Origin: a virus
Taxonomy: Duplodnaviria > Caudoviricetes
DNA length: 64,000 nt
Strand: one strand, 5' to 3'
IMG/VR virus record: IMGVR_UViG_3300029288_000095
Location: 51,732-115,731 of that record
Below the pieces are notes generated by a model. It was not told the origin of the DNA. It worked only from the letters and a program-made list of their open reading frames with translations, and searched no databases. Made by a program: the position numbers and the translations under genes. Shown here in pieces: positions 4,221 to 11,068 of this stretch; the stretch's first letter is position 1; every line of letters starts with the position of its first letter.

Positions 4221-4251
4221 TATAATATAACATATATCCAGAAAAAGTCAA
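4221..4251 (-). promoter_or_regulatory. Sigma70-type early promoter
   Basis: TTGACT-N16-TATATTATA on the - strand; same layout at 6725-6755 and 15226-15256. Confidence 0.7.
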
Positions 4252-5157: not shown

Positions 5158-5821
5158 TTTTTTTATCTACCTTCTTCATTCTAAAATCAGATGTATAACG
5201 ATGTGTAGGACCGAATAGTTTTTCTTCAAAACCGCAATGTGGGCATTTTCCTTTATAATATCCGCCCATCATTGCGGGAAGATCTTCAAATTCGCTCTTA
5301 TATATCGGATAACCGCATTTCCAACAGATTTGCATGTCATCTTTAACATACATGGTTTTATCTTTATTATTGACAAGTTGAATCTTTAAATCATTTTCAA
5401 GTATATGTTTTTCAATTCGATTAACAATATCATATTTTTTTTCACAGTCCATGCAAATATCTGCCGTATTTGTAAATATAAGACAGCCAGTATTAAACTG
5501 ATAGCCGCGATAATACAAGGGCTTATCCATATTTTTTTGCCCTTTATAATGACGCCGAGAACTTCGGGAATATGTTTCATAATCGTATTTTTTATCACAA
5601 TAAGAACATGATCTCATTCTATCTATACGGTAATTAAATTGTCCGCTTGTTAATGATTTTGATATAATCTCATTCATTAAGGGCAATTCAAATCCTATAC
5701 TTTTTTCATATTTTTTTTTATTTATTATTTCTTGTACTCCATGCGACACCTTCCCATCAAGAAGAAGAAGCTCTTCGTACTTTAATGAAACATTCGTAGT
5801 GTTAATCATTTTTCGGCTCAT
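5147..5821 (-). CDS. Multi-CxxC zinc-binding hypothetical protein
   Basis: 224 aa with four CxxC pairs (CSYC, CMDC, CWKC, CPHC). Confidence 0.65.
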   Translation of the reverse strand: MSRKMINTTNVSLKYEELLLLDGKVSHGVQEIINKKKYEKSIGFELPLMNEIISKSLTSGQFNYRIDRMRSCSYCDKKYDYETYSRSSRRHYKGQKNMDKPLYYRGYQFNTGCLIFTNTADICMDCEKKYDIVNRIEKHILENDLKIQLVNNKDKTMYVKDDMQICWKCGYPIYKSEFEDLPAMMGGYYKGKCPHCGFEEKLFGPTHRYTSDFRMKKVDKKNEM

Positions 5822-6071
5822 ATTCTTTTACGTAGTTATCTATCCCACCACAAGCGATTACTTTATCAATGCGCGTACCGCGATCCTTATAATCAAGTTT
5901 ATGACCTATTATAATTTCGATCATACCTTTAGCAATTGCCTTATGTCGGATGTATTCATTTTTTGGTTTGCTTTTTTTCATAGCCATATCTATAAGTGTG
6001 GCAAGTTCGCAATCTGTGTAATACAAAAATGCATCATCTACGCTACGGATATTGTGTTCGGTTATTATCAT
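5802..6071 (-). CDS. Hypothetical protein
   Basis: 89 aa with AAGGAG RBS; first ORF downstream of ncRNA array 1. Confidence 0.6.
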   Translation of the reverse strand: MIITEHNIRSVDDAFLYYTDCELATLIDMAMKKSKPKNEYIRHKAIAKGMIEIIIGHKLDYKDRGTRIDKVIACGGIDNYVKEYEPKND

Positions 6072-6097
6072 TTTACCACTCCTTTTTATTTATAAAC

Positions 6098-6267
6098 AAT
6101 TTTGCGCTCACTAGGAGCGGCCAATAACAGGGCTGATATCTATCCCTACAATTTGGCAGCATGGCGGCAACCACACCCATTGCTAATCCATTCATTCTTG
6201 CCAGAGAATTGTAGATATAGCCATTGAAGTCGTTTCAGACTCCGCTACCCCCAGTCAACGCAAAATT
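6098..6267 (-). ncRNA. Array 1 unit G: rod-shaped RNA with central bubble (6S-RNA-like shape)
   Basis: Terminal stem AATTTTGCG/CGCAAAATT, nested AGCGG/CCGCT, GGCT/AGCC, CTACAATT/AATTGTAG and GGCA/TGCC; preceded by boxA-like 6271-6281. Confidence 0.55.
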
Positions 6268-6270
6268 TTT

Positions 6271-6293
6271 TTTCAAAGAACAATAAGAAAAAA
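6271..6293 (-). repeat. U-tract plus boxA-like linker repeat
   Basis: tttcaaagaacaataagaaaaaa is 22/23 identical to 6518-6540; the core also occurs at 6710-6720, 10654-10664, 10852-10862 and 11004-11014. Confidence 0.8.
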
Positions 6294-6297
6294 GGTA

Positions 6298-6516
6298 GCG
6301 CAACTTCCTTCATGACAACGATAGCCTTTATCCCACGATAACGGGAGGCTAAATCATGTTTTATTTGTTTCTACTTCTTAGGTTCTCAACACCGCTTCAT
6401 TGCCTCTGGTAACAACGGAGGTCCTAGACGCTCCGTAAAGGTATCTTTCAACCTGAATAATGAACGGGTAAGTTTCCTTAACCCGCAGGCTCCGCGATGC
6501 ACCGTAAATAGTGCGC
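6298..6516 (-). ncRNA. Array 1 unit F: multi-hairpin structured RNA
   Basis: Ends GCGCA/TGCGC; hairpins CGGGT..AAG-GAAA-CTT..ACCCG, CGGAG/CTCCG and CATGA..AGCCT/AGGCT..TCATG; no ORF of 60 aa or more; preceded by boxA-like 6518-6528. Confidence 0.5.
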
Positions 6517-6540
6517 TTTTCAAAGAACAATAATAAAAAA

Positions 6541-6708
6541 TCCTTCCTATCTACGCCTTCAGCCGTAAGGCACTAATGGATTCCTCTTTCGAGGCTATCC
6601 TCACATAGCGGAGAAGTATGCCTAATCCTGTGCCAGGCTTGACACTTTGAAACATCTTTACCATTCAAGGAATAGTGTTCTGGCTCTAAAGGCTCCTTCT
6701 CGGAAGGA
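6541..6708 (-). ncRNA. Array 1 unit E: multi-hairpin structured RNA
   Basis: Closing stem TCCTTCC/GGAAGGA, nested GAGAAG/CTTCTC, GCCAG/CTGGC and ACACT/AGTGT, plus a CCTC-GAAA-GAGG tetraloop; preceded by boxA-like 6710-6720. Confidence 0.55.
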
Positions 6709-6724
6709 CTATCAAAGAACTACG

Positions 6725-6755
6725 TATAATATACTATAAATCGTAAAAAAGTCAA
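6725..6755 (-). promoter_or_regulatory. Sigma70-type promoter of ncRNA array 1
   Basis: TTGACT-N16-TATATT, immediately followed by GTTCTTTGATA. Confidence 0.7.
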
Positions 6756-7012
6756 GCGTTATTTATCTTATTAAGTTCGTCTATAAGCCTTTGATTTTCT
6801 ATAGATACGGAATCACATATTTCTTGCATTCTTTCTTTTTCGCGTTTTAGTTCTTCAAACTGCAACAAGAGTTGGCGATAAGCCGCATCACCATCTTCAT
6901 TTTTCTTTTTAAGATTATCTATTGCAATGTAAGCGGCAGTAAGTGCAAAAATAGCGTCTAGTCTTGGTTCTTCTGAATGCTGTATGTCTTGAATGTCTTC
7001 TTGAAGGCTCAT
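6752..7012 (-). CDS. Coiled-coil hypothetical protein
   Basis: 86 aa with heptad pattern. Confidence 0.55.
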   Translation of the reverse strand: MSLQEDIQDIQHSEEPRLDAIFALTAAYIAIDNLKKKNEDGDAAYRQLLLQFEELKREKERMQEICDSVSIENQRLIDELNKINNA

Positions 7013-8054: not shown

Positions 8055-8287
8055 TCTGCATCCACCTTCACCGCTGACGGTACTGCAGCGCGTTTCAAGT
8101 GTTGTTTACAAAATAATTCACCGGTAACAGGTTTTCGTGAACATTGCTTAAATAACAACCCTGACGGTATTTCCATCGCGCATTTATTTTCTTGATACGC
8201 ACGTCCATTCGGCATACCTGGCCATGATCCGTACCTATAAAGTCGCGCTTCATCTTTTGTTTTCGGTAGATTTATCATATACATCAC
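8051..8287 (-). CDS. Small C3H zinc-finger-like protein
   Basis: C..QCSRK...FCKQH pattern; AAGGAG RBS. Confidence 0.6.
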   Translation of the reverse strand: MMYMINLPKTKDEARLYRYGSWPGMPNGRAYQENKCAMEIPSGLLFKQCSRKPVTGELFCKQHLKRAAVPSAVKVDAE

Positions 8288-8514
8288 TCCTTATCGTTAG
8301 CTGACGGGGCGGTAGTGCGCTCAACGCTGTTGTTTGGAAGTTCAAAAAATGGCGTTTTGTCTTTTTTATCAGTGAAAGCCTTCCCATTGCAACTACAGCA
8401 CCCGTAAGTATTACCTGAATATAAATAAACCACATCTCCTTTTTTATAATCCCTTTGTAGCCAAGAGCATTCGCTTTTCAATACATCCCGTATCAATATA
8501 TATTTATTTTCCAT
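8284..8514 (-). CDS. Small hypothetical protein
   Basis: 76 aa ending SANDKE. Confidence 0.6.
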   Translation of the reverse strand: MENKYILIRDVLKSECSWLQRDYKKGDVVYLYSGNTYGCCSCNGKAFTDKKDKTPFFELPNNSVERTTAPSANDKE

Positions 8515-8517
8515 ACA

Positions 8518-8754
8518 TCACTCATTATCGTTAGCTGACGTGGCGTCAGTGCTCTTCAAGTGTTTTTCTATTGCGCGTATACACGCTTTTACTTTTGGTA
8601 TGTCAGATATTAGCAATTCAATTGTACCGCCATTGCCATGACCTGCATTTGGGTATAAGTACATTTCTGAATCTGTAGATATATAAACTGATTCCCTGCG
8701 TATTTCAGCCGAAAAACTCCCCATAGATTTAGTTTGATTCAAACATAGCCCCAT
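8518..8754 (-). CDS. Small hypothetical protein
   Basis: 78 aa ending SANDNE; AAGGAG RBS. Confidence 0.6.
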   Translation of the reverse strand: MGLCLNQTKSMGSFSAEIRRESVYISTDSEMYLYPNAGHGNGGTIELLISDIPKVKACIRAIEKHLKSTDATSANDNE

Positions 8755-8757
8755 ACA

Positions 8758-9042
8758 TCACTCCTTTGCGGCTTCGGCGTTAATCTTTATCATTGCCTCA
8801 CATAATTTTGTGCCGATACAAGGCGATTTGTAACCACACATTTTACATATTTCAACAGACGCAACTATAAGCATGTTAAGCTTAACCTTCCGGAGTGCGG
8901 CGGCGTGGTCGGATTTAAGTTTTGCAATTTCTTTCTTCATCTGCTCGTTGTTATACTTTAATTGGCAAGCGGTTGCATGATATTTATTACGTTCAAGACT
9001 TATTTCAGTGATTTTATTTTCAAGTTTTTCAATCATTTTCAT
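8758..9042 (-). CDS. Small coiled-coil/Cys protein
   Basis: 94 aa with GGAGG RBS. Confidence 0.55.
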   Translation of the reverse strand: MKMIEKLENKITEISLERNKYHATACQLKYNNEQMKKEIAKLKSDHAAALRKVKLNMLIVASVEICKMCGYKSPCIGTKLCEAMIKINAEAAKE

Positions 9043-9048
9043 TAGTTT

Positions 9049-9258
9049 TTATCCTCCTGTTCCTGTGCTATTTATACACGATTTTTTTAATTCAGTGCTC
9101 ATAGTGAACCGCTGGAGATACGTACACGTTTCCGCGCATTTATCCACTTTCGTTTTTGAATAAACGCCCCATCCAGCATCGCAGTATTTACATGGCAATA
9201 TTCCAAGTTCAAGCGCACCTTCCGGATTCAGAGGTACAATTTTTACATTTTCGCTCAT
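9049..9258 (-). CDS. Small Cys-rich protein
   Basis: 69 aa with CxxC and CxxxC. Confidence 0.5.
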   Translation of the reverse strand: MSENVKIVPLNPEGALELGILPCKYCDAGWGVYSKTKVDKCAETCTYLQRFTMSTELKKSCINSTGTGG

Positions 9259-9701
9259 TTGTTTGATCCCAACAGAACTTCACCGCCAGGTCCAGTTTTT
9301 GTTCTCATTTTTAAACTTTCTGTATGATGCAATGGTATAGTCATAAAATTGAATTCTAATTGTTTTTCAAGCGTGTAGATAGTCTGGTTATCGCATTTCT
9401 CTTCGCGGATTATATGACCGTCATGCCGCAATTTTTTTATTATCTGCGACATCTTTTCAGATACTTCGCCGCAGACATGGATCGGATTATTCTGAAGCGT
9501 AAAAAGCACATTCACTTCATCAATTTCAAGCGCATGATCCGTATAAAAATCTTCATCATGCTCAATATACTCTTCGCCCATGATCTGCTTACAAAGCTTA
9601 ACGACTTCGCCAAGTGTATAGTTTTCAAGATTAGCATATTCATCTAGTATATGAATCGCGACTGATTTACGTCCAGCGTAATAATTTTCATTCTTTTCCA
9701 T
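9255..9701 (-). CDS. Hypothetical protein
   Basis: 148 aa with GAGG RBS. Confidence 0.6.
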   Translation of the reverse strand: MEKNENYYAGRKSVAIHILDEYANLENYTLGEVVKLCKQIMGEEYIEHDEDFYTDHALEIDEVNVLFTLQNNPIHVCGEVSEKMSQIIKKLRHDGHIIREEKCDNQTIYTLEKQLEFNFMTIPLHHTESLKMRTKTGPGGEVLLGSNK

Positions 9702-10226: not shown

Positions 10227-10373
10227 AATTAACCACCTATTAGAAATAATAACCCCAGATTTTCATACTGAGGCGCTATGCGCGGTGGAATTCGTAGCCG
10301 CGACGACTTAGGCGATTTCATCCTAGGATTAGCCTAATCTTTTGGTCCGCAGGATTGTATCAAGCAGACCGTG

Positions 10374-10427
10374 CGCCACCCAAGGGGTTGAGCCTTGCGA
10401 ACACTTTGTTCGGAACCGTCGGTGGCA
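10374..10427 (-). ncRNA. Array 2 unit D: D-armless mini tRNA-like fold
   Basis: 7-bp TGCCACC/GGTGGCG stem, CGAAC/GTTCG hairpin, and 5-bp CAAGG/CCTTG stem with a 7-nt loop stacked on the closing stem. Confidence 0.4.
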
Positions 10428-10435
10428 ATATAAAC

Positions 10436-10650
10436 TCTGGCTATGCGGGTAATCCCGCTATTCTTTCGCGCTTGTTTCGTGATTGAGGTCCGTAAGCAAT
10501 AATTTGCAAACTTAATACATCTATGCCATTATTAATTATTTATATATGGATTAAAATGTACTTACCACTAACTCCCGCCATAGACTACGGCAGACGGCTG
10601 ACCAACCGAACCTTTATTGCCTGTGTTTCAAAACAACACCGATAGCCAGA
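10436..10650 (-). ncRNA. Array 2 unit C: tRNA-framed RNA, 215 nt
   Basis: P1 TCTGGCTAT/ATAGCCAGA, then CG, GTGTT/AACAC hairpin, variable middle, TA and GCGGG/CCCGC hairpin. Confidence 0.6.
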
Positions 10651-10674
10651 TTTTTTCAAAGATCAAAAAGAAAA

Positions 10675-10850
10675 TCTTGTGGGTAGGTCGTTAATCCTAC
10701 TATGCGCACATGCCACCACATTTCTGTGATAATACCTGTTATTATCGCCCAGTACCTTTACGGCATATGATACTACTTAGCTGGAACGAATCTGCGCATG
10801 ATACAGTTTACTTTCAAATCTGCGTGTCTACTTTCCACGCCGCCACAAGA
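10675..10850 (-). ncRNA. Array 2 unit B: tRNA-framed RNA, 176 nt
   Basis: P1 TCTTGTGG/CCACAAGA, then CG, GCGTG-GAAAGTAGA-CACGC, variable middle, TA and GTAGG-ATTAACGA-CCTAC. Confidence 0.7.
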
Positions 10851-10870
10851 CTTTCAAAGAACATAAAAAA

Positions 10871-11003
10871 GCTGTACGGCAAATCGTTACTTTTGCTAGG
10901 CTGTTTCCACCTTCTACGGATACTATGTATCAGCCGGTTCGGGGTGTGCAAGCCAAGTCCGATCCCATCTTTGCGTGTCTACGTTTTCCACGCCGCGTAC
11001 AGC
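10871..11003 (-). ncRNA. Array 2 unit A: tRNA-framed RNA, 133 nt
   Basis: P1 GCTGTACG/CGTACAGC, then CG, GCGTG-GAAAACGTAGA-CACGC, variable middle, TA and GCAAA-AGTAACGA-TTTGC. Confidence 0.7.
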
Positions 11004-11022
11004 TTTCAAAGAACTGTTATAC

Positions 11023-11050
11023 ATTGTACATCAAAATATAAAAATGTCAA
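11023..11050 (-). promoter_or_regulatory. Sigma70-type promoter of ncRNA array 2
   Basis: TTGACA-N16-TACAAT followed 8 nt later by GTTCTTTGAAA. Confidence 0.75.
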
Positions 11051-11068
11051 GACCGAAAATGCATAAAA

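Follow-up and report, generated by a model that had tools for sequence, protein, structure and literature searches.

Phage use of the boxA element of the host is already known. In the lambda nut (boxA plus boxB) and HK022 put systems, the polymerase becomes resistant to termination through boxA or an RNA structure of the nascent early transcript. Phages also encode small stable RNAs of their own, and in T4 two of these, RNAC and RNAD, are encoded in the tRNA cluster and matured with the tRNAs. The function of these RNAs, also called species 1 and 2, is still not known (PMC9697503), and neither is that of GOLLD and ROOL, highly structured phage RNAs that lie beside stable-RNA genes in tRNA islands (PMC12286853). 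In the ribosomal RNA (rrn) operons of Bacillota, boxA (the site for NusB, S10, NusA and NusG) stands in leader and spacer, after a strong promoter and before each RNA (16S and 23S), and leader-trailer helices enclose the RNAs (PMC10250234). Here, we describe array 1, a locus of 658 bases (positions 6098-6755, - strand) in a 64,000-base window of phage DNA. The window, by which we mean the whole stretch analyzed, comprises bases 51,732-115,731 of the 115,731-base IMG/VR virus record IMGVR_UViG_3300029288_000095, which comes from a landfill metagenome and has an estimated completeness of 62% (CheckV). We consider it fairly probable that this large phage, which probably infects Bacillota, has in array 1 an accessory stable-RNA operon built like a host rRNA or tRNA operon. 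The motif and the layout are well supported, and it is these that we set out first.

On the - strand, array 1 runs from a promoter through three units, E, F and G, each led by a boxA-like element. The promoter is of the sigma70/sigmaA type (6728-6755; -35 TTGACT at 6755-6750, a 16-nt spacer and -10 TATATT at 6733-6728) and fits the consensus at 10 of 12 positions, with the -35 overlapping the stop codon of an 86-aa open reading frame (ORF) upstream. Given the positions of the -10 and of the first boxA-like element, GTTCTTTGATA (6710-6720), the transcript is expected to begin practically at this boxA1, with the predicted start at approximately 6721, at its first base. Unit E (170 nt, 6540-6709) is predicted to be closed by an 8-bp terminal helix of 6709-6702 with 6547-6540 (GTCCTTCC/GGAAGGAT), and is followed by linker 1 (6529-6540), a T6 tract plus ATTATT of which the first T is shared with the closing helix of E, and by the second boxA-like element, GTTCTTTGAAA (6518-6528). 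Unit F (221 nt, 6297-6517), with a terminal helix of AGCGCA (6517-6512) and TGCGCT (6302-6297), leads through linker 2 (6282-6296; ACC, a T6 tract and CTTATT) to the third boxA-like element, again GTTCTTTGAAA (6271-6281), and unit G (170 nt, 6098-6267) has terminal helices of 11+9 bp. Each unit begins 0-3 nt past the 11-mer GTTCTTTGAWA, the internal linkers (T6, NTTATT, boxA, A) are U-rich and identical at 23 of 24 positions, and all three boxA copies are co-oriented with the promoter, on the sense strand of the predicted transcript. The longest ORFs inside the array are 40-50 aa, have TTG starts and lack a ribosome-binding site (RBS). An earlier note on the same DNA, made without database searches, had described the promoter followed by E, F and G on the - strand, with no ORF of 60 aa or more; we find every element at or within 2 nt of where it was placed and agree on unit coordinates and lengths, with E counted here as 170 nt (168 in the note) and the near-identical linker as 23/24 (22/23).

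Array 1 shares with the Bacillota rrn operons an identical boxA core, the placement of boxA after a strong promoter and before each RNA, and the closure of its units by helices. Unlike in rrn, the cargo consists of three candidate RNAs of 170-221 nt that belong to no known family, and the whole is phage-borne and accessory. From GOLLD and ROOL the units differ in matching neither model and in being 3-5 times smaller, and array 1 has no canonical tRNA and lies apart from the tRNA operon of the phage. T4 RNAC and RNAD belong to a phage of another host phylum, show no sequence relation to E, F or G and have no boxA punctuation; they have been detected experimentally, whereas E, F and G are known here from sequence alone. 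Array 1 would resemble lambda nut and HK022 put if its boxA or folds made the polymerase termination-resistant, but the structures in those systems are a 15-nt boxB and 65-nt put hairpins, compared with mutually unrelated structures of 170-221 nt, and array 1 is altogether absent from relatives of the phage. The boxA of array 1 is of the Firmicute type and not of the E. coli type (GCTCTTTAA), and one promoter serves three units that each have their own boxA. No N-like protein was identified in the phage, although no search aimed at one was made.

Judged by its sequence, the 11-mer corresponds to the boxA that Bacillota have in the 16S-23S spacer. Scanning one genome per prokaryote species for a 16S 3' end followed 90-120 nt later by GTTCTTTGAAA returned at least 120 loci, nearly all in Bacillota, and the genera among the loci listed include Bacillus, Neobacillus, Priestia, Paenibacillus, Lysinibacillus, Clostridium, Sporosarcina, Spiroplasma, Dialister and others. 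In a single Clostridium genome, the extended 14-mer TTGTTCTTTGAAAA occurs 16 times and the control once. In B. subtilis, the rrn leader boxA has the near-identical consensus AUGAUCUUUGAAA with a small hairpin ahead of it, and NusB binds it by nuclear magnetic resonance (PMC13753749). The statement in the earlier note that the motif matches the rrn boxA of many non-enteric bacteria is thus borne out. Array 1 agrees with Bacillota rrn in position as well as in sequence, as its boxA stands after a promoter and before a stable-RNA-type unit. Because the 11-mer is the Bacillota rrn boxA, the phage host is probably a Bacillota bacterium, and sigmaA-type promoters and strong AAGGAG sites also fit such a host.

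The motif is also more frequent than expected by chance. With at most one mismatch it occurs 16 times in the window, against 4.8 expected, and in 100 shuffles the count stays below 16 every time. Exact copies number seven in the whole 116-kb record, compared with none of the reversed control, and six of the seven precede a folded RNA or a tRNA. A rival explanation takes the 11-mer for an AT-rich repeat arisen by chance, or for a DNA operator bound by a regulator of phage or host, and the units would then be ordinary intergenic DNA. The position of the motif next to promoters and its occurrence in unrelated contexts (CRISPR repeats and coding repeats) would suit that explanation, which we nevertheless hold to be very improbable: the copies all point in the direction of transcription, agree exactly with the rrn spacer boxA, lie against the 5' ends of tRNA and tmRNA (transfer-messenger RNA) genes in other phages and outnumber those in every shuffle, and the cognate ends of the units that they delimit pair significantly (see below).

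The same layout is found at genuine stable-RNA genes. The earlier note proposed scanning the genome for more motif-led units, and the phage has such units in a tRNA operon and in a sister array (array 2). The tRNA operon lies approximately 43 kb before the window start (G000:C1 ~8830-9460; locus L001 1420-2050) and begins with a TTGACA/TATATT promoter that is followed by a 7-bp hairpin and GTTCTTTGAAA, an arrangement like that of the B. subtilis rrn leaders, in which a small 5' hairpin precedes boxA. A tRNA-Ser-like gene starts 1-2 nt past this boxA and is followed by tRNA-Pro, Gln, Thr and Gly. The tRNA-Ser-like RNA is 92 nt long and is reported by ARAGORN only with relaxed or intron settings, and a 121-nt tmRNA-like element lies between tRNA-Gln and tRNA-Thr. 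Array 2 (window 10300-11060, - strand) repeats the sequence of promoter, boxA, terminal helix and U-rich linker with units A, B and C, and its third boxA copy reads GATCTTTGAAA.

To look beyond this phage, IMG/VR was scanned for two motif copies 165-195 nt apart, which gave 28 loci. Over half of these are coding or tandem repeats, and about a dozen are real stable-RNA arrays of large phages. The motif stands 4-9 nt ahead of tRNA genes in three of them (L015, L033 and L037) and 4 nt ahead of the tmRNA in another (L014). In L031 and L033 the distance from the motif to the Rfam GOLLD 3' domain downstream is 400-460 nt, which places the motif at the start of the variable 5' half of GOLLD, so that GOLLD in two phage contigs is preceded by the same boxA motif as array 1. 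Four more (L019, L028, L036 and L039) have motif-led units with no tRNA or Rfam match. Across 11 array records we count 55 motif copies, clustered and co-oriented, against 8 of the reversed control, a ratio that is illustrative as the records were chosen for the doublet. Because the same motif heads the tRNA operon of this phage, and tRNAs, tmRNA and GOLLD in other phages, we read the promoter-boxA layout as a mark of stable-RNA transcription units. In the literature, we have not found Firmicute-type boxA described as punctuating phage arrays of tRNA, tmRNA, GOLLD or orphan RNAs.

Some of these loci have further features. In L014 (2008-2605; IMGVR_UViG_3300042261_001186, 130 kb, 100% complete by CheckV), boxA is followed by a 172-nt unit, a second boxA and the tmRNA (tag GKNQIL*), and the 172-nt unit, which has no assigned family, is closed by an 11-bp A/T helix. 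The GOLLD scores are 315 bits in L031 (IMGVR_UViG_3300008267_011103) and 170 bits in L033 (IMGVR_UViG_3300015214_001139), and L031 has two further promoter-plus-boxA repeats ahead of the GOLLD boxA. In L039 (3917-4600; IMGVR_UViG_3300029288_000077, 184 kb, with terminal repeats), neither Rfam nor ARAGORN matches any of three boxA-led units. The second of these has an 11-bp closing helix, and the hairpin at the end of the third contains a canonical GGTTCAATTCC T-arm, so that this last unit is tRNA-like with a large insert.

Comparison with relatives indicates that array 1 comes and goes. In G001, the closest relative in IMG/VR, with a head protein 89% identical, a 193-aa gene is followed by a promoter homologous to the TTGACT/TATATT promoter, after which an RBS and a gene come directly, without RNA units between. 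In L065, another relative, with a portal 75% identical, the 193-aa gene abuts the 223-aa gene, and the 86-aa ORF, array 1 and the 89-aa ORF are therefore all missing. By this comparison array 1 is accessory, because both close relatives lack it. In array 2 the difference is one of content. L065 has a counterpart (8060-8610, - strand) with a near-same promoter, then GTTCTTTGAAT, then a unit unrelated to A and B that has its own 7-bp terminal helix, and then a T-rich linker, boxA and unit C. Unit C differs between the two phages by 2 changes in ~230 nt (99% identical), and past it the two diverge completely into unrelated flanks. Since unit C is kept in L065 while A and B are replaced, the units behave, on the evidence of array 2, as cassettes that are gained, lost and swapped at the boxA linkers.

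The predicted structures follow the boundaries set by the motif. The closing helices of E, F and G are present in the minimum free energy folds and are made from the first and last bases of each unit. Inside, E is predicted to be a multi-helix structure with a CCUC-GAAA-GAGG hairpin and a CUUG-loop hairpin, the terminal helix of F to enclose two domains, one of which has a perfect 9-bp GAAA-capped hairpin, and G to form a long interrupted rod leading to a three-way junction, with a UGAAAC loop. The GAAA tetraloops reported earlier for the - strand are thus present in the hairpins of E and F but not in G. For F the - strand fold is more stable than its + strand counterpart by 11.6 kcal/mol (-66.7 vs -55.1 kcal/mol) and for G by 16.5 (-65.0 vs -48.5 kcal/mol), which is consistent with an RNA read from the - strand. 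Against dinucleotide shuffles, the score of G is strong (z = -5.1/-4.6), and by these folding models G alone is individually convincing as a fold. For 14 boxA-delimited units from the present and other phages, the first 25 nt were paired with the last 45 nt, and cognate ends pair better than non-cognate ends (Mann-Whitney p = 8e-5; p = 9e-4 for the five units from the present phage and L065). Terminal helices in the tested units begin 0-5 nt past the 11-mer. Together with the minimum free energy folds, this upholds the earlier claim that each unit is closed by its own terminal stem.

No known family or homologue accounts for the units. Rfam at gathering scores gives no match in the whole window, and permissive scans of 5900-6900 (at most 22 bits, far below the cut-offs) and of array 2 return only noise, which agrees with the units not being known cis-regulatory Rfam RNAs. 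ARAGORN finds nothing in the window by default and nothing in array 1 in intron-tolerant and relaxed runs. We therefore rejected a tRNA or tmRNA identity of E, F and G (ARAGORN and Rfam being negative in the array), as well as GOLLD/ROOL, riboswitch, 6S, ribozyme, pRNA and Y RNA identities, for which there was no covariance-model match. Homologues of E, F and G were not found by 'distant' blastn against 50,697 INPHARED phage records, by exact 20-21-mers of G, F and E in IMG/VR and of F in GTDB genomes, or by short-word blastn among all fetched loci. When blastn was run on 401 Bacillota genomes, 13 portal relatives and 11 phages with boxA arrays, it matched nothing except the boxA linker and, by chance, a single 33-nt stretch. 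Single-sequence covariance models of G (R1) and E (R2) found no homologue in 26 phage records; the best foreign match of the F model (R3) in the same records, at 16 bits and with the 5' domain deleted, was judged to be noise. A triple-boxA scan of metagenome contigs recovered CRISPR (clustered regularly interspaced short palindromic repeat) arrays, tandem repeats and one eukaryotic repeat, and no orthologous array. In more distant portal relatives the motif is not enriched. Many of these contigs (L042-L064) hold CRISPR arrays with periods of 66, 77 and 92 nt whose repeats contain GTTCTTTGATA (for example, GCTGTGATCTGATACCGAGAAGCGTTCTTTGATAGC). The 11-mer inside CRISPR repeats is probably a coincidence, yet it swamps motif-only searches.

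If array 1 is a stable-RNA operon of the rrn type, we envisage its operation as follows. Host RNA polymerase would start at the TTGACT/TATATT promoter, almost exactly at boxA1, and the nascent boxA RNA would recruit NusB-S10 with NusA and NusG. The modified elongation complex could then resist Rho-dependent and hairpin-induced termination over ~650 nt of untranslated, folded RNA. With boxA 0-3 nt ahead of the terminal helix, the 5' strand of that helix may be kept beside the RNA exit channel while its 3' partner is being made, and the same tethering role has been proposed for boxA and the leader-trailer helices of rRNA (PMC10250234). Host RNases would cut the U-rich linkers and release E, F and G separately; cutting would also sever the boxA tether, and the next boxA would reload the complex. 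Removal of the tether by cutting would explain a fresh boxA for each unit, as before 16S and again before 23S. Transcription would continue into the 89-aa ORF and the downstream early genes. Nus binding, antitermination, processing and stability of the array 1 RNAs are all inferred. As to what the RNAs do, we judge host take-over or decoy RNAs to be most likely, a guess suggested by the position of the array in a hypervariable early block of small orphan genes.

Several observations weigh against the stable-RNA operon. The shuffle scores of E (z = -2.2/-2.6) and F (z = -2.1/-1.9) are only suggestive, so that the folding control proposed in the earlier note is strong for G and modest for the other two units. 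All three structures are single-sequence predictions without covariation support, and no base pair is backed by covariation because homologues of E, F and G were not found; the covariation analysis foreseen in the earlier note had nothing to align from BLAST, exact words or single-sequence models, and a conserved family with covarying pairs did not emerge from the phage, IMG/VR and GTDB searches made. Within these limited searches E, F and G have no relative. The sequencing runs in which the phage DNA occurs are all landfill DNA metagenomes, with no RNA run among them; of two DNA runs, X1 is the source assembly and X2 has small pieces of a relative, none covering array 1. Even for the rRNA operons of B. 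subtilis, rrn-type antitermination has not been demonstrated, only NusB binding (PMC13753749). In PBC2, a cultured Bacillus phage, the tRNA array lacks the motif, and the layout is therefore not general. Finally, we found no terminator between G and the RBS at 6084, and the whole stretch could be a plain 5' leader.

The last point is the basis of an alternative in which the 650 nt form one cis-acting leader of the early operon, with boxA keeping the polymerase termination-resistant, as nut or put sites do, for expression of the 89-aa ORF and later genes, and with the folds serving as spacers, pause sites or protection and not as separate RNAs acting in trans. Such a leader would use a known phage device, boxA behind early promoters, and a nut-like 5-bp hairpin (CCUUC-CGA-GAAGG) is possible at the start of E, directly after boxA1. 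This hairpin competes with the E terminal helix, and boxA3 has no comparable hairpin after it. We think a cis-acting leader unlikely, because two close relatives run the same early genes from a homologous promoter without it, array 1 is divided into three self-contained units that each have a terminal helix and a boxA, the identical layout heads true tRNA, tmRNA and GOLLD genes, and the units of array 2 are exchanged as cassettes.

A different objection concerns function. The units could be decaying or selfish RNA cassettes, for example degenerate tRNA-like genes, that hitch-hike on the boxA linkers and have no present function, as the failure to find homologues in the searches made, the modest z-scores of E and F and the ability of the closest relatives to do without array 1 might suggest. 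Decay of this kind is harder to reconcile with intact, near-identical linkers, a strong promoter that has been kept and a very stable fold of G (z ~-5), or with the 99% conservation of unit C between fully diverged flanks, which points to selection or recent acquisition; we regard it as distinctly unlikely, though conceivable for E and F.

Returning to the stable-RNA operon, the per-unit punctuation by Firmicute boxA and the three orphan RNAs are new here. The earlier note did not recognise a described system here, which goes too far, since phage stable-RNA islands with orphan structured RNAs and phage use of boxA were already known. Its picture of an operon of unrelated structured RNAs gains from the recurrence of the layout in array 2 and the tRNA operon and from the lack of an Rfam match, whereas the folds themselves are strong only for G. 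If the reading is correct, phages of Gram-positive bacteria use the host rRNA boxA as a portable stable-RNA signal on tRNA, tmRNA, GOLLD and orphan RNAs, and boxA plus a terminal helix would provide a simple sequence handle for unannotated phage RNAs. Such arrays would also be a natural test-bed for the rrn-type antitermination and chaperone complex of Bacillota. Three candidate structured RNAs without known relatives are added, and the cassette swap in the sister array suggests that such RNAs are traded between phages like accessory genes. A broader proposal, which is tentative and which we would not expect to hold in full, is that large Bacillota phages carry exchangeable cassettes of boxA, helix-closed RNA and U-rich linker that use the host rRNA machinery for early mass-production of processed RNAs. 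E, F and G might then be new classes of trans-acting RNA, such as decoys directed at host defence or at RNA-binding factors, and per-unit reloading might be general, extending to tRNA, tmRNA and GOLLD.

Around array 1, the + strand of the window encodes the portal, the prohead protease and major head proteins, while the - strand from ~11,060 to 3,912 forms a 7-kb block of small orphan ORFs that contains the array. Ten neighbouring small ORFs have no Pfam or PHROGs match above cut-off, and searches with neighbour proteins recovered no related loci. Downstream of G, an RBS (AAGGAG, 6084-6079) precedes an 89-aa orphan ORF with its ATG at 6071 (5802-6084 including the RBS, - strand), the product of which matches only itself among 5.8 billion proteins. 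As no terminator intervenes between G and this ORF, the two are probably co-transcribed. Reverse transcriptase (RVT_1), TROVE and RtcB have no match in the 116-kb record (62% complete), which thus gives no sign of the partner gene of a retron (RVT_1) or Y-RNA (Ro/TROVE) module.

Another such promoter, the third, consists of TTGACT, a 16-nt spacer and TATATT with a TG extension and lies at window 4224-4251 (-), near the distal end of the - strand early block. Straight after it comes a 96-aa ORF, and neither boxA nor an RNA unit is present there. The portal in the window is 555 aa long and free of an intein/LAGLIDADG-type domain. Among its homologues (P0013-P0015, P0021, P0030, P0031 and L065 11811-13931), several are 900-960 aa long and have intein/LAGLIDADG-type Pfam domains, and a neighbouring gene in L065 has an intein-splicing domain too.

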